Sequence record: OK335775.1
Length of the DNA stretch: 64,000 nt
Direction: 5' to 3' (one strand)
Source of the DNA: Escherichia phage PSD2002
Below are positions 1,820 through 7,714 of this stretch, one piece after another (the stretch's first letter is position 1; the number at the start of each line of letters is the position of its first letter). The notes beneath the pieces were generated by a model. The model made no database searches, was not told the origin of the DNA, and saw only the letters and a list, made by a program, of their open reading frames with translations. The translations under genes and the position numbers were made by a program.

Positions 1820-2141
1820 TTTATCTGATTTAGATAATTTTGTTAAAGATGCTGAAGAGGGCCCTAGTGACCCTCGTTATTATGAGAAATCATTAGATAT
1901 AATCCGTAAGTCAATGGGTTCTGTTAAGCAGGAAATTATGCTTACTTTACCCGATGGCACTGCTCACATCGTTTATGTGATGAATATTGTTATTGAGAAA
2001 GATGGAAAAGTGTCGGTTGATTTCGGAACACCTTCCGAAGACCGAAAAGAAGAGCTAGCGCTTCATGTAGAAAAATGTGTTACAATGCAAATACAAGAAG
2101 AACTGGATAAAATTAAATCTAAGAGGTGGTGGAAGTGGTAG
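1812..2141 (+). CDS. 40: Gene 40 head vertex assembly protein
   Basis: 109-aa ORF between uvsX and gene 41, overlapping both; assigned by position and size (T4 gp40 is of similar size). Confidence 0.65.
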   Translation: MTDLSDLDNFVKDAEEGPSDPRYYEKSLDIIRKSMGSVKQEIMLTLPDGTAHIVYVMNIVIEKDGKVSVDFGTPSEDRKEELALHVEKCVTMQIQEELDKIKSKRWWKW

Positions 2142-3565
2142 AAACTATTTTGGCTCAACTGCTAGGCAATAGTGATTATTTCACTAAGGTCTGGCCTTAT
2201 ATGAATGATTCTTATTTTGACCAGGGTCCTGCAAAGACCCTTTTCAAAGAAATTAAAAAACACGTCAATGAATATAATGCAGTGCCTTCTAAGAATGCAT
2301 TAAGCATTGCATTAGATAACAGTACGCTTTCAGAAGTTGAACATCAAGGCGCTAAAGAGCTTTTAAGTTCGCTGAACGCCGGGCCTGAAGACCAAGAATG
2401 GTTGGTTAAAGAGACGGAGAAATACGTTCAGAAAGCAGCGATGTATAATGCAACTTCAAAAATCATTGAAATCCAAACTAATGCCGACCTTCCGGTTGAG
2501 CAACAAAATAGAAAACTTCCAGGTATTGGTGCTATTCCAGATATCATGCGTGATGCATTATCGATTTGTTTCGATTCTGAATTAGGTCATGACTGGATGG
2601 ATGACTATGAAGAACGATTCAAAAGTTATTCCGATAAAGCACGTAAGGTTCCGTTCCGTCTTAATATTCTGAATAAGATTACTAAAGGTGGTGCCGAGTT
2701 TGGTACTGAAAACGTATTGTTGGCAGGAACAAACGTAGGTAAGTCTCTCGGTCTTTGTTCATTGGCTGCTGATTATCTTCAATCTGGTTACGATGTTCTT
2801 TATATCTCCATGGAGATGGCAGAGGAAGTATGTGCTAAGCGTATCGATGCCAACCTTCTGGATGTATCACTGGATGATATCGATGATGGCCACGTCTCGT
2901 GGCCTGAATATAAAGCTAAGATGGATAAATGGCGTTCAACTGCTACTTTAGGTCGTTTAAAGATTAAACAGTATCCTACTGGCGGTGCTAATGCCGATAC
3001 ATTCCGTGCATTATTAAACGAATACAAGCTCAAACAAAACTTTGTCCCACAGGTCGTTATCGTTGACTACTTGGCTATCTGTGCATCGTCTCGTACGAAA
3101 GTTTTCTCTGAAAACAGTTACGGATTGATTAAGATGGTTGCTGAAGAACTACGTGGACTTGCAGTAGAGAAGAAATTACTGTTGTGGACTGCAGCCCAGA
3201 CTACTCGTGGTGCGAACGTTGCAGCCGAAATCGATATGGCCGATATTGCTGAATCCTTTGGTATTGCACATACTGCAGACTTCATGTTGGGTGTGGTCGA
3301 GACAGAAGAGTTCGCTCAGATGGGTATGCAGATGGTTAAGCAGCTTAAATCTCGTTATGGCGATAAGAGCTACTACAACAAATTTAAGATTGGCGTTAAG
3401 AAAGGAAATCAACGTTGGTACGAAGTTGAAGATGATTCCAACCCAGGCCCAGTGAACACTGTTCGTGAGGCTACAGGTGAGATGAATCGCCAGGCCGAGG
3501 TCAATCGACAGACGCGTGTTAATAGAAGTGATTTGGACGATTTAGCAGCATCTATCAAATTTTAA
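2126..3565 (+). CDS. 41: Gp41 replicative DNA helicase (DnaB-like)
   Basis: 479 aa; Walker A GTNVGKS, DnaB-family architecture, N-terminal similarity to T4 gp41; position after 40. Confidence 0.95.
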   Translation: MVEVVETILAQLLGNSDYFTKVWPYMNDSYFDQGPAKTLFKEIKKHVNEYNAVPSKNALSIALDNSTLSEVEHQGAKELLSSLNAGPEDQEWLVKETEKYVQKAAMYNATSKIIEIQTNADLPVEQQNRKLPGIGAIPDIMRDALSICFDSELGHDWMDDYEERFKSYSDKARKVPFRLNILNKITKGGAEFGTENVLLAGTNVGKSLGLCSLAADYLQSGYDVLYISMEMAEEVCAKRIDANLLDVSLDDIDDGHVSWPEYKAKMDKWRSTATLGRLKIKQYPTGGANADTFRALLNEYKLKQNFVPQVVIVDYLAICASSRTKVFSENSYGLIKMVAEELRGLAVEKKLLLWTAAQTTRGANVAAEIDMADIAESFGIAHTADFMLGVVETEEFAQMGMQMVKQLKSRYGDKSYYNKFKIGVKKGNQRWYEVEDDSNPGPVNTVREATGEMNRQAEVNRQTRVNRSDLDDLAASIKF

Positions 3566-3591
3566 GGAGCTTCGGCTCCTTTTTTGTTTTT
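3566..3591 (+). terminator. Rho-independent terminator after gene 41
   Basis: GGAGC-TTCG-GCTCC hairpin followed by TTTTTTGTTTTT; immediately followed by an early promoter. Confidence 0.7.
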
Positions 3592-3595
3592 AAGG

Positions 3596-3624
3596 GTTTA
3601 CATCTCCTGTAGGCGTGATACTAT
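3596..3624 (+). promoter_or_regulatory. T-even early promoter (GTTTAC-N17-TACTAT)
   Basis: Match to the T4 early promoter consensus with sigma70-like spacing. Confidence 0.6.
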
Positions 3625-3648
3625 AGACCTATCAACTTGGAGAACAAA

Positions 3649-3966
3649 ATGAAAACCATCGACTGTAAAGCAGAATATAAAGTGTATTACCATGGAAGTT
3701 GTAGTGTCGCTAATATCGGTAATATGCTTTGTCCTCCTGAGGAAACAGGAGTTCTGTCTGAAACCGGTCGTAAGAAAAACCTAAATCGTGTGTTCTTTAC
3801 TGAAGATATCGGTTTGGCTAAGATTTATGCCGGACGTGCAGCTCGTTCAGTGGGAGGAGAACCCCGTCTTTATCGTGTAATTGCTCCGGTGGATGTGGTT
3901 TGTTTAAATGATACTAAAGGCGCTACGGTTTATCATGCTGAATGGGCCTTCTGCGAGGAAATCTAA
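3649..3966 (+). CDS. Hypothetical protein, possible minimal ART-like fold
   Basis: ATG at 3649 preceded by GGAGAA; ORF track start at 3637 is a TTG inside the 5' UTR. Contains YYHGS ... KIYAG ... EWAFCEE. Own early promoter upstream. Confidence 0.5.
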   Translation: MKTIDCKAEYKVYYHGSCSVANIGNMLCPPEETGVLSETGRKKNLNRVFFTEDIGLAKIYAGRAARSVGGEPRLYRVIAPVDVVCLNDTKGATVYHAEWAFCEEI

Positions 3967-4161
3967 ATGTCTGAATCAATTAAAGTAAAATTTGTCGGCC
4001 ATTTCGCCAACGGTGATACCGCTACCAAAGAAGCTTCAGTGCGTGAAAACGATATCGTGTGGGTGACTACCCAATTCGCTGAAGTAAATAATATTTTGGT
4101 TAAGGCGTATGTCGACGACGTAGAAGTTTATGAACATGATGCCCGTATTGAGGAAATCTAA
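3967..4161 (+). CDS. dmd: Candidate Dmd (discriminator of mRNA degradation; antitoxin against RnlA/LsoA)
   Basis: 64-aa ORF in the 41-61 interval where T4 encodes dmd; pattern VKVKFVGHF...WVTTQFAEVNNILVKAY resembles the remembered T4 Dmd sequence. Not verifiable without alignment. Confidence 0.4.
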   Translation: MSESIKVKFVGHFANGDTATKEASVRENDIVWVTTQFAEVNNILVKAYVDDVEVYEHDARIEEI

Positions 4162-4302
4162 ATGGAAGAATTTGAATGTGTAGTATGTGGTTGTTCGGTC
4201 TGTGAAGACCAGGCAGTATTTGATGCTTGGGACAACGCAACCTGTTTAGACTGTGACAGCGAATTCGAAGAAATTGCTCATAAACATGAAGGCGAGGAAT
4301 AA
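4162..4302 (+). CDS. Small Cys-rich (zinc-ribbon-like) protein
   Basis: 46-aa ORF with SD GAGGAA, fills the gap between neighbours; CVVCGC...C...CLDC cysteine pattern. Confidence 0.35.
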   Translation: MEEFECVVCGCSVCEDQAVFDAWDNATCLDCDSEFEEIAHKHEGEE

Positions 4303-4542
4303 ATGAATATCGTACTAATGAAACCAACTCCTAGCTCTTTTTGGAATAAATCTTTCGGTAAGCATAATATGTTTATCCAACGTACCGTAAACAACTGGGA
4401 ACTAGTTCTTTCAGTGGGCCACAACGATTATGAACAAGAATACGTAGAGTTCTTCGAATTTCCTGTGAAGCCCACTAAGCGTCAGATTCGTCAGACAAAA
4501 CGTAAATTCCGTAAAATTTCTTTGGAAGATTCATTAAAATAA
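4303..4542 (+). CDS. Hypothetical small protein with basic C-terminal tail
   Basis: 79 aa; SD GGCGAGGAA upstream; C-terminal PTKRQIRQTKRKFRK motif shared with ORF 5330..5551. Confidence 0.45.
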   Translation: MNIVLMKPTPSSFWNKSFGKHNMFIQRTVNNWELVLSVGHNDYEQEYVEFFEFPVKPTKRQIRQTKRKFRKISLEDSLK

Positions 4543-4543
4543 A

Positions 4544-4573
4544 GTTTACAACGGTCTATGGTAGTGATACTAT
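4544..4573 (+). promoter_or_regulatory. Early promoter upstream of spackle-like gene
   Basis: GTTTAC -35 and TACTAT -10. Confidence 0.55.
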
Positions 4574-4601: not shown

Positions 4602-4895
4602 ATGAAAAAGTTATTAATCGCAGCAATTCTTACCGTAGCATCATGTGGCACAGCTCCGGTAACTGCCGGATTGGATAAAGACCTTTGTGAATGGTCTATG
4701 ACTGCAGACCAAGAATCAGTCGAACATCAGATTTATGCTGATATCATGAACATCACTAAACGTGACCGCCCTGATATGGTTAAAGAAGTGTCAGACCAAT
4801 TGGCTTCAGGTGGTGTTATGCAATATAACTATGTTTTGTATTGTGATGCCAATTTCGATAACAAAAATATCGTTAAAGAGGTGACAGGTGAATAA
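4602..4895 (+). CDS. sp: Spackle-like periplasmic protein (superinfection exclusion; inhibitor of gp5 lysozyme)
   Basis: 97 aa from ATG 4602 (SD AGGAG at 4591); N-terminal signal peptide MKKLLIAAILTVASCG; conserved DKDLCEWSMTADQ and GGVMQYNYVLYCD resemble T4 Sp as recalled; located in the 61.x cluster. Confidence 0.6.
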   Translation: MKKLLIAAILTVASCGTAPVTAGLDKDLCEWSMTADQESVEHQIYADIMNITKRDRPDMVKEVSDQLASGGVMQYNYVLYCDANFDNKNIVKEVTGE

Positions 4896-5328
4896 GATTA
4901 ACAGAAATTTAGTTATCAAAAAACTTTGTTGTAAAAATCCAAATGCACAAGCATACAGGATGTTTTGGAGCGACGACCACCAATACCTAGGTTATTTTCT
5001 TGTTGATAGCGATGATCGAATTACAATGGCTCATAAACTTCTTAACAGAGAATTAAACCATTGGCAAGAACTTATTGCGGTGAGGTCTAAATTATTTTCT
5101 CGCAATACAATGCACCAATTGGTTTATTTTTTCGCCGAAGGTATTCCTGACAAGGTTGAGTTTGATGGATTCGAATTTAAAGACATCCTCCCAGACAACG
5201 AATTGAACGACCGCGTTAATATGGACATCCCTAGCAAGTATATCAAAAACAGTCTGTTGAAAATTCTGGAAGCTCCGGTTTATTCAATAGATGACCAGAT
5301 TTTTAATGCCTTTATGAATCGAGGTTAA
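4888..5328 (+). CDS. Hypothetical protein
   Basis: 146-aa ORF beginning at GTG 4888 (start uncertain), SD AAGAGG upstream; no similarity recognised. Confidence 0.45.
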   Translation: MNKINRNLVIKKLCCKNPNAQAYRMFWSDDHQYLGYFLVDSDDRITMAHKLLNRELNHWQELIAVRSKLFSRNTMHQLVYFFAEGIPDKVEFDGFEFKDILPDNELNDRVNMDIPSKYIKNSLLKILEAPVYSIDDQIFNAFMNRG

Positions 5329-5329
5329 T

Positions 5330-5551
5330 ATGTTTGTCTTAACTCAATTCTCTAAAGCGGTGTATAGTTACTCTTGTCAGTGGGAAGTCTTTATCGATTC
5401 TCCTTCACCTAAGTACGGTGTTTTTGGTCGAGTAACTACTCAAGCTTATGTTGCACGGCCAACTAAGCGCCAGCTTCGTAAACTTAAAAAGGCCCATCGC
5501 CAACTGATTGAGAGAAGGGAACAATATGAGTGCAATGTGTACGGGCTCTAA
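5330..5551 (+). CDS. Hypothetical small protein with basic C-terminal tail
   Basis: 73 aa; PTKRQLRKLKK motif paralogous to the tail of ORF 4303..4542. Confidence 0.45.
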   Translation: MFVLTQFSKAVYSYSCQWEVFIDSPSPKYGVFGRVTTQAYVARPTKRQLRKLKKAHRQLIERREQYECNVYGL

Positions 5552-5933: not shown

Positions 5934-6962
5934 ATGTCATATGTCGATAGAGAATTTGCTGTACGTGCCTTGAATTACCAACCTAAATTCAGACAAGTAA
6001 CTGGTAGTGATTTTAAATTAAACTGTCGTTGTCGTGTATGTGGCGACTCCCAAAAAGATGAGAACAAAGCTCGTTTTTGGGCCTATCCGGCTAATGATGG
6101 CTCCGTAATGCTGCACTGTTTTAACTGCGACTATTCAGCAGGAATTAAGAAGTATCTATACGAATATGAGCCGGATTTATATCGAGAATATATTCTTGAG
6201 AAACATAAAGAGCAATCGTTCGGGAGACAAGCTGCACCTAAGGTGGAGATATCTGAAAAAATTAAAGCTAAGATGCCTGTCATCGAAAAGCTTAATTTCT
6301 GTGAACGATTAGATAGAATGCCGAAGGACCATCCTATTATCAAATATGTAACACTACGTTGCATTCCTGAAAACAAATGGAATCGCTTATGGTTTACTAA
6401 AGAATGGCCGGCATTGGTGAACTCTGTCAATCCAGGGACCTATTCTAAAGAAATGCCTGAGCCTCGTTTGGTTATTCCAATTTTCAATAAGAATAAACAA
6501 ATTGAAAGTTTTCAGGGTCGAGCCTTACGTAAAGATGCTCCACAAAAGTATATTACAATAAAAGCTCATGACCAAGCTACAAAAATATATGGAATGGATA
6601 CAGTTGACGAACGTCAGTTGGTGTGGGTAATGGAAGGTCCTATTGATTCATTATTCGTACCTAATGCAATAGCAATTACTGGCGGGTCGTTGGACTTGGC
6701 TATGGTTCCGTGCAAAGAAACTAGGGTTTGGGCCCTTGATAGCGAAAGCCGCCACCCAGATACTATTTCAAGAATGAAAAAGCTTATCGAGGCTGGTGAA
6801 AAAGTAGTGTTTTGGGATAAGGTCCCTTGGCCTTCTAAAGATATTAACGATATGATTAGAAAAGACGGGGCGTCGCCGGAAGCAATACTAGAATATATGA
6901 AAAGTAATTACAGTCAAGGATTAATGGCTAAATTGAGATTACAACGGTATGCTAAAATATGA
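5934..6962 (+). CDS. 61: Gp61 DNA primase
   Basis: 342 aa; N-terminal zinc-binding CRCRVCGD...CFNC and Toprim-like core; matches T4 gp61 in size and sequence as recalled. Confidence 0.95.
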   Translation: MSYVDREFAVRALNYQPKFRQVTGSDFKLNCRCRVCGDSQKDENKARFWAYPANDGSVMLHCFNCDYSAGIKKYLYEYEPDLYREYILEKHKEQSFGRQAAPKVEISEKIKAKMPVIEKLNFCERLDRMPKDHPIIKYVTLRCIPENKWNRLWFTKEWPALVNSVNPGTYSKEMPEPRLVIPIFNKNKQIESFQGRALRKDAPQKYITIKAHDQATKIYGMDTVDERQLVWVMEGPIDSLFVPNAIAITGGSLDLAMVPCKETRVWALDSESRHPDTISRMKKLIEAGEKVVFWDKVPWPSKDINDMIRKDGASPEAILEYMKSNYSQGLMAKLRLQRYAKI

Positions 6963-7714
6963 ATTATAATAAAATTTATGACGATTTGGTTAATAGGGCC
7001 CTTGAAAGGGGTCTTATTAAAGAAAATTTAAAATACTATACAGAATCTCATCATATTATACCTGAATGTATAGGTGGGCCTGATATAGATTCAAACAAAG
7101 TATTATTTACGGCAAGAGAGCATTTTATAGCTCACATATTATTGTATAAGATTTATAAGTTGCCTAAATTAATATATGCTGTGCATATGATGTGCAATTC
7201 TAGCGAAAAGCACCAAAGAAATTCTAAGATGTATGACTGGCTTAGAAAGGAGCATAAAGCAGCCTTAAGTAAGAAAATGACCGATGCTTGGAAAGCCCCT
7301 GAATTTAGGACCAAAATGGTGGCGGCCTTATACCAAAGGCACAAAGATAAGCCCGTCACAGAGGAGACTAGGGAAAAACAGTCTAATTCTCTAAAGAGGT
7401 ATTATAAAGAAAATCCTATCTCTGAAGAAGCAAAAAAGAAAAATTCAGAAGCCCAAAAACAAAGGTTTAAAGATAGGCCTCAAACAGAAGAAACAAAAAG
7501 ATTAAGGAAGGACTCATGCAGAAAAACCCAAGGCACCCCTATATGGTTATGTAATTCGAATGGGGTAGGAATAGAAAAGTTTTCTTCTGCGGCAGAAGCT
7601 AAAGAAATCTTAGGATTGTCCGGGCACACCCAAAATATATACACCGCTTGTAAGCGAAACAAAGAAACCGGGAGATTGTATAAATCCTCCGGTTTAATTT
7701 GGAAATATCAATAA
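6959..7714 (+). CDS. HNH-family homing endonuclease (Mob/I-Hmu-like)
   Basis: 251 aa; HNH core HHIIPECIGGPD...N...EHFIAH followed by a Lys/Glu-rich repeat region and a C-terminal DNA-binding-like module; start overlaps the gene 61 stop (ATGA); markedly AT-rich codon usage compared with flanking genes. Confidence 0.8.
   Translation: MNYNKIYDDLVNRALERGLIKENLKYYTESHHIIPECIGGPDIDSNKVLFTAREHFIAHILLYKIYKLPKLIYAVHMMCNSSEKHQRNSKMYDWLRKEHKAALSKKMTDAWKAPEFRTKMVAALYQRHKDKPVTEETREKQSNSLKRYYKENPISEEAKKKNSEAQKQRFKDRPQTEETKRLRKDSCRKTQGTPIWLCNSNGVGIEKFSSAAEAKEILGLSGHTQNIYTACKRNKETGRLYKSSGLIWKYQ

Follow-up and report, generated by a model that had tools for sequence, protein, structure and literature searches.

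Among phages of the T-even group, Alt, ModA, and ModB of T4 are ADP-ribosyltransferases (ARTs) that depend on nicotinamide adenine dinucleotide (NAD+) and act early in infection (PMC5512222, PMC9503650). The Arr enzymes have other hallmarks: an HGT motif, Y49, a catalytic D84 within DPN[VL], and C-terminal contacts with rifampin that include an M[RK][DE]xL motif and V140 (PMC6092378). Polyvalent proteins, for which delivery together with the invading DNA and early action against host systems are predicted, can also include an ART-fold domain, such as ART-PolyVal (PF18760, of the H-Y-D type), within giant delivered proteins (PMC5512222). Here, we have analyzed a stretch of 64,000 nucleotides of Escherichia phage PSD2002 (sequence record OK335775.1; this whole stretch is called the window below) and focused on an open reading frame (ORF) at positions 3649 to 3966 (+), which encodes a protein of 105 residues. 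Sequence, homology, and a structural model identify it as a minimal Arr-like protein of the ART fold, the ortholog of RB69ORF040c and a member of phrog_2110. We are confident, if not certain, that the protein has this fold and is related to Arr. Our best overall explanation, in which we place somewhat more belief than doubt, is that it is an immediate-early, NAD+-using ART effector of Arr-related origin.

Homology to Arr and predicted fold

The window protein taken alone gives a subthreshold match to the Pfam family Arr-ms (PF12120; E value of 0.026, 15.1 bits for a cut-off of 25) over residues 13 to 77. We used two alignments, and the profiles derived from them, to place it: A1, restricted to T-even proteins, and A2, made of 45 diverse family members. 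Searched against the sequences of the PDB, the A2 profile retrieved only Arr chains (2HW2 and 9IAF with an E value of 0.001, Arr-2 with 0.25), and phmmer with the window protein alone and a search with the A1 profile found nothing there. The comparison of A2 with an alignment of Arr by hhalign gave a probability of 96.2% (E value of 2e-9) over residues 9 to 84. Arr-ms is matched by 23 of the 45 members of A2, which matched no other Pfam family. The residues H15, E38, R41, and F49 of the phage protein are the equivalents of H19, E40, R43, and Y49 of Arr. The N-terminal three quarters of the protein, i.e., the HG[ST] of strand 1, the E-x-x-R loop, the [FY]-x-T of strand 2, and the next helix, share homology with the half of Arr that binds NAD+.

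The family extends well beyond T-even phages. An exhaustive profile search gave 245 cluster representatives, of which many are stand-alone proteins of 90 to 150 residues and others are parts of proteins of 870 to 3924 residues, where the ART-like domain is accompanied by ART-PolyVal, NUDIX, GNAT, Toprim, and PcfJ domains. Several of these large members reach the gathering score of Arr-ms (27.5 bits for P0124, 29.4 bits for P0148). Hence, giant polyvalent proteins, both of phages and of conjugative elements, incorporate this domain as well. We also observed that in two such proteins, P0137 and P0149, the Arr-like domain adjoins ART-PolyVal, and P0149 has in addition a NUDIX domain; two ART lineages are thereby found in one polypeptide.

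The predicted structure has the ART fold. The AlphaFold2 model, built from a 40-sequence alignment, has six strands and one long helix (predicted local distance difference test score, 85.6; predicted template modeling score, 0.77). Its closest structural relatives are Arr and KptA/Tpt1, with PARPs, pertussis-like toxins, DarT, ParT/RES, Rhs ART toxins, and a cyanophage ejectosome protein at lower ranks, and the top list consists almost exclusively of these families. Among viral models, Foldseek retrieved orthologs, a 94-residue siphovirus protein named "Rifampin ADP-ribosyl transferase," a PcfJ-like polyvalent protein, and ART-PolyVal proteins. A preliminary description of the locus, made from the sequence alone, had suggested an ART of the H-Y-E type on the basis of three motifs. 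All of them are in the protein (YYHGS at residues 13 to 17, KIYAG at 58 to 62, and EWAFCEE at 98 to 104). At the level of fold and superfamily, the suggestion holds, and the specific relative is Arr. The assignment of the H-Y-E residues, however, needs correction.

Conserved residues and the third catalytic position

Near-invariant positions over 270 aligned sequences are H15, G16, E38, R41, F49, T51, A57, Y60, A61, G69, and G70, a pattern of sequence conservation that would fit an NAD pocket. The strand-1 histidine and the small or hydroxyl residue typical of ARTs are present as H15-G16-[ST]17. In the alignment, the H15-G16-S17 codons (3691 to 3699, +) encode the strand-1 NAD-binding motif opposite the HGT of Arr (H19 to T21); H15 is found in 255 of 256 aligned family sequences and G16 in all 256, with HGT in 139 of the 256 and HGS in the window. 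The aromatic residue expected on the next core strand is F49, a conservative Phe for Tyr, encoded with F50 and T51 at 3793 to 3801 (+) and aligned with Y49 of Arr, the canonical "Y" position. Phe occupies this column in 260 of 269 sequences and Tyr in the other 9, and T51 is found in 264. A second conserved aromatic residue, Y60 (codon at 3826 to 3828, +; Tyr in 264 and Phe in 4 of 268 sequences), comes 11 residues after F49. This spacing matches the Y-X10-Y pair of diphtheria toxin (Y54/Y65) and PARP1 (Y896/Y907). E38 and R41 are conserved in 264 and 265 of 267 aligned family sequences.

What stands at the acidic position of the ART signature? The start of strand 5, where ARTs have E, D, or Q, is occupied in the window protein by T93 (codon at 3925 to 3927, +), which the model places directly before a predicted strand at residues 94 to 97. 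Its column is Thr or Ser in most family members and in all of the T-even clade; Glu is found there in the giant polyvalent members, as G-T-E-V, and in a distant group of stand-alone proteins, as N-E-Y-I, a motif reminiscent of the N-E-Y-I-V of PARPs. When the representatives at 50% identity with an intact C terminus are counted (n = 122), 38 have Glu, 70 have Thr or Ser, and 14 have another residue. We infer that the canonical acidic residue of strand 5 belongs in this column, and that its Glu was lost in the T-even clade. A Thr at this place does not exclude the protein from the ART superfamily, because the H-H-h clade of ARTs also lacks an acidic residue there.

The triad of the preliminary description must be redrawn accordingly. 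Its histidine, H15, stands as the invariant counterpart of H19 of Arr. Its tyrosine, Y60, is near-invariant but is not the canonical aromatic residue, which is F49. Its glutamate, E103, is a T-even residue away from the probable acidic position. This last residue (codon at 3955 to 3957, +), at the end of the last strand, is specific to the T-even clade, where it is present in at least 90% of A1; family-wide, it accounts for 135 of 237 aligned residues and is found in a minority of the 50%-identity representatives. A "Glu migration," with E103 replacing the lost strand-5 Glu, was considered and dropped as a family-wide rule (among the 50%-identity representatives, E or D at position 103 in 13 of 70 with Thr or Ser at position 93 versus 4 of 38 with Glu; Fisher p = 0.41). 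Such a substitution is possible within the T-even clade only. Since the presence of E103 is not correlated with the loss of the Glu at position 93, the third catalytic role could fall to E103 (in the T-even clade), to the invariant E38 of the flexible loop, or to substrate assistance.

Comparison with known ARTs

Sequence homology to the phage protein was detected for Arr (PF12120, NF033144; PDB 2HW2 and 9IAF) and for no other family. Both proteins are small single-domain ARTs with HG[TS], the E-x-x-R loop, the [FY]-x-T strand, and the following helix. The HGT motif and Y49 of Arr have their counterparts in HGS and F49. The remaining hallmarks are missing. HMMER and hhalign alignments end just before the EDDPN of Arr, at whose place the phage protein has VVCLNDTKG, with no DPN, and with N87 and D88 varying within the family. 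The phage protein stops at residue 105, without the C-terminal rifampin-binding segment, whereas Arr has about 140 to 150 residues. It also falls short of the curated cut-offs, with a score of 12.9 against 130 for NF033144 of NCBIfam and 15.1 against 25 for Pfam. Unlike Arr, it is encoded by an early gene of virulent T4-like phages, and its domain is also found in polyvalent proteins.

The other ARTs are more distant. KptA/Tpt1 (PDB 9LD3 and 6EDE) is defined by an N-terminal winged-helix, RNA-binding lobe and an R-H-R-R tetrad. We found neither two lobes nor this tetrad: the phage protein is a single lobe, with 75 residues aligned to a chain of 179, and it has no N-terminal RNA-binding lobe, no Pfam match to this family, and no detectable sequence homology to it. 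The anti-CRISPR ADP-ribosyltransferase AcrIF11 (PDB 6KYF), which targets a subunit of Csy/Cascade, is 19% identical to the phage protein and has no link to it at the level of profiles; nothing here suggests a counterpart of its target. Alt, ModA, and ModB are larger and belong to the R-S-E clade, whereas the phage protein is of the His type. It lacks the Arg, Ser-x-Ser, and Glu-x-Glu signature and has no Pfam or PHROG match to their families, and T4-like phages would have in it a further, independent ART lineage. Finally, the window protein does not match ART-PolyVal (PF18760), and in P0137 and P0149 this domain and the Arr-like one are separate regions.

An early gene at variable positions in T4-like genomes

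The ORF begins with an ATG at 3649 and ends with a stop codon at 3964 to 3966. Its product, of 11.6 kDa, is best explained as a cytoplasmic, immediate-early protein. A TTG at 3637 is listed as an alternative start and would give 109 residues. This start is less likely, because a Shine-Dalgarno sequence read from the sequence, GGAG (3639 to 3642, +), lies 6 nucleotides 5' of the ATG. Upstream is the helicase gene 41 (2126 to 3565), which bears this annotation in Escherichia phage QL01, and the end of its transcript is marked by an intrinsic-terminator-like hairpin with a T run (3564 to 3581, +; AAGGAGCTTCGGCTCCTT then TTTTGTTTTT). The promoter scan then gives a T4-early-type promoter, (G)TTTACA-16-TACTAT with an upstream TG extension, at 3597 to 3624 (+). 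The preliminary description had placed a 105-residue ORF with its own early promoter and Shine-Dalgarno sequence between gene 41 and dmd, and the coordinates, the promoter scan, and the GGAG all agree with it. The phage of the window belongs to the JS98-like T-even phages (Dhakavirus). Positions 3400 to 4400 of the window are 99.5% identical to phage QL01, in whose record the ORF is a "hypothetical protein" between "DNA primase-helicase subunit" and "discriminator of mRNA degradation."

The gene is real, as opposed to a reading frame open by chance, and is under purifying selection. It matches phrog_2110 ("unknown function") from end to end (E value of 1.5e-60), has 122 close homologs of 96 to 112 residues in a large protein database, and shows a ratio of nonsynonymous to synonymous substitution rates (dN/dS) of 0.10 with RB69 and 0.15 with phiR1-RT. 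By tblastn, it is present in 609 of 50,697 phage records. Among them are RB69 (RB69ORF040c), JS98, RB16, RB43, 44RR2.8t, and phiR1-RT, and T4-like phages of Klebsiella, Acinetobacter, Aeromonas, Cronobacter, and Vibrio. Most records label it hypothetical, a few "putative ADP-ribosyl transferase," and one "rifampin ADP-ribosyl transferase." The ART nature of the protein was thus guessed previously by some annotators. It had no match in the PADLOC defense models.

The position of the gene varies. In Dhakavirus and Mosigvirus, it is found between 41 and dmd; in Acinetobacter phage AM101, elsewhere within the 41-61 region; and in RB16 and 44RR, in the hoc-srd region, so that its linkage to dmd is not kept across genera. 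In T4, it is absent from the syntenic site, since gene 41 directly precedes the promoter and dmd there; the promoter that T4 carries immediately before dmd is of the same type. A promoter with GTTTAC and a TG-extended -10 element is found directly 5' of the homologous gene in RB69, phiR1-RT, 44RR, and AM101. Because the promoter accompanies the gene at differing genome positions, the pair resembles in its behavior an early cassette of hyperplastic regions that brings its own promoter. RB69 has an extra ORF of 124 residues between gene 41 and the ART-like gene, RB69ORF041c (L011 2072-2446), which is missing in the window and shows further plasticity at this junction.

Neighboring genes

Downstream of the ART-like ORF is dmd, the antitoxin against RnlA/LsoA (3967 to 4161, +; Pfam Dmd, E value of 1.5e-16). 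Both genes are probably co-transcribed, because the ATG of dmd abuts the stop codon of the ART-like ORF (TAAATG). An ORF of 46 residues abuts dmd in the same early unit (4162 to 4302, +; phrog_13952, E value of 4.6e-31). It is rich in cysteines (CVVCGCSVC...CLDC), has stop/start junctions on both sides, with dmd and with the TifA-like gene, and may encode a zinc-binding mini-protein. The last gene of the unit (4303 to 4542, +; Pfam DUF7279, E value of 3.9e-19) is of the gp61.4/TifA family, the Pfam family that also includes T4 gp61.4. In T4, TifA (gp61.4) counters ToxIN (PMC9391042, PMC10853763). The promoter scan gives the next early promoter, GTTTACA-17-TACTAT with a TG extension, at 4545 to 4573 (+), before spackle; in type, it hardly differs from that at 3597 to 3624, and it starts the next early transcription unit. 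From these junctions and the two promoters, the ART-like gene is the first cistron of a four-gene early unit.

Further along the window, we observed three other features. A second paralog of the TifA/gp61.4 family, of 73 residues (5330 to 5551, +; Pfam DUF7279, E value of 4.5e-19), is unannotated in QL01. At the place of adfA (61.2) of T4 there is an ORF of 146 residues (4888 to 5328, +; phrog_8539), of which just the last 14 residues match the AdfA model (E value of 0.0069); the anti-DarT gene adfA appears to have been replaced by another gene that keeps the same 3' end. Finally, a homing endonuclease of 251 residues (6959 to 7714, +; phrog_655, E value of 3.6e-52) directly follows the primase gene 61 and overlaps its end. 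It is missing from that position in QL01, which is otherwise 99.5% identical over 3400 to 4400.

Proposed function and alternative explanations

How could such a small protein act? We propose a stripped-down ART domain, distantly homologous to Arr, that would be made immediate-early from its own promoter. It would bind NAD+ through H15/G16/S17, F49, and Y60 and would transfer a single ADP-ribose, early in infection, to a target of the host or of its defenses, which could result in takeover or counter-defense. Arr and KptA/Tpt1 modify hydroxyl or phosphate groups, and the canonical Glu is here a Thr; hence, we consider the odds of a non-protein or substrate-assisted target to equal or exceed those of a protein side chain. 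Rifampin should not be this target, because the drug-binding C-terminal part of Arr and the DPN/D84 motif are missing. We lean slightly toward a catalytically active transferase. A role in host takeover or anti-defense is a serious possibility that falls somewhat short of being probable. The preliminary description had argued for an effector role from the neighboring genes, and this argument is reasonable and can be strengthened, given that the gene heads an early unit with dmd and a gene of the TifA family. More speculatively, a module of about 95 residues, the smallest ART known and one without the classical Glu, could modify a non-protein target, such as the end of a nucleic acid or an immune signal consisting of a small molecule or nucleotide, as a form of counter-defense. 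We regard this as rather unlikely. If true, it would be a new functional class of phage anti-defense enzymes, distinct from Alt and Mod, found as a cassette in hundreds of T4-like phages and within injected polyvalent proteins.

Several observations weigh against an Arr-related, NAD+-using effector. The T-even-only profile gave just 48% probability against Arr, and the link to Arr therefore depends on the wider family. Foldseek against the PDB ranks the same families first but with weak E values (0.014 at best), and the AlphaFold2 loop at residues 34 to 47, which bears the invariant E38 and R41, is the one part of the model with low confidence. T93, E103, and E38 have a putative placement relative to the NAD pocket, deduced from secondary structure and the alignments. 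The canonical acidic position is Thr or Ser across the T-even clade, and 46 of the 70 Thr/Ser representatives also lack E103. This may mean that catalysis needs substrate assistance or another residue, or that the protein only binds NAD+ or ADP-ribose. In addition, we found no conserved partner (hydrolase, immunity protein, or target) beside the homologs in RB16, 44RR, AM101, a Vibrio phage, and metagenomic contigs. A literature search on RB69ORF040c, on Arr-like phage proteins, and on the dmd/tifA/adfA locus found no paper and no report of activity for any member.

The main rival explanation builds on the same residues: the protein would be a pseudo-enzyme or sponge, whose ART fold binds NAD+ or a molecule derived from ADP-ribose, e.g., a defense second messenger, without any transfer, acting by sequestration or as a regulatory binder. 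The Thr or Ser at the position of the catalytic Glu and the many representatives without E103 favor it, as do the pocket residues H15, F49, and Y60, which remain invariant, and known phage sponge proteins are likewise very small and early-expressed. We still find it unlikely. About a third of the family representatives retain Glu at the T93 column, and the invariant E38 and R41 in a flexible loop fit catalysis or substrate handling. PARP-family enzymes of the H-Y-hydrophobic type are active mono-ARTs. Moreover, the closest structural relatives are active without a Glu at that position, Arr using D84 (PMC6092378) and KptA belonging to the H-H-h clade (PMC9503650). Could the protein instead act on nucleic-acid ends, like KptA/Tpt1, and ADP-ribosylate or remove a terminal 2'-, 5'-, or 3'-phosphate of RNA or DNA, perhaps in relation to RNA damage from RNase toxins of the host? 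Such an activity would be in line with the place of the gene before dmd, the conserved basic loop GRKKN (R41, K42, and K43), the co-transcription with dmd and the TifA family, which act against RNase toxins, and the homolog of RB16 lying four genes upstream of rnlB. However, the protein is an ART lobe only, of 105 residues instead of about 180, with the short aligned region and the absent Pfam KptA match given above; the sequence homology favors Arr, and the linkage to dmd is not conserved. These points make a KptA-like activity distinctly improbable.

Two further activities seem to us more improbable still. A NAD+ glycohydrolase could deplete or reshape the NAD+ pool of the host early in infection. 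T4-like phages need NAD+ themselves, for Alt, the Mod enzymes, and ligases, which speaks against such an activity. The ART fold does have an intact nicotinamide-side motif, and some members of the superfamily are NADases or NAD+ phosphorylases (PMC9503650), but there is no immunity partner near the homologs and the nearest relatives are transferases; we consider this explanation very unlikely. The least likely of all, to the point of being marginal, is that of a true rifamycin ADP-ribosyltransferase shielding the host RNA polymerase that the phage needs from rifamycin-type antibiotics. The Arr enzymes are the only sequence-detectable relatives with a known function, some genome records name the homologs "rifampin ADP-ribosyl transferase," and a role in rifamycin protection has been attributed to Arr-family genes of Microbacterium, Gordonia, and Sinorhizobium phages (PMC9503650). 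Arguments against such a role in our case are the NCBIfam equivalog and Pfam scores, the end of the Arr alignment before the catalytic EDDPN with no DPN motif, and the early stop, which leaves out the M[RK][DE]xL segment and rifampin contacts such as V140.

Significance

The protein is a new minimal variant within the known ART superfamily. The T-even ARTs named in the literature are Alt, ModA, and ModB, to which this gene would add an unrelated, His-type, Arr-related lineage. Its absence from the syntenic site of T4 may help to explain why no study was found. The missing drug-binding part of Arr is also a warning against automatic "rifampin resistance" labels on phage genes. The early unit of the gene encodes two known counter-defense functions, and the domain recurs in delivered polyvalent proteins. 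Together with its distribution, this makes the ART-like gene a well-defined and easily testable candidate for a new activity in host takeover or anti-defense.
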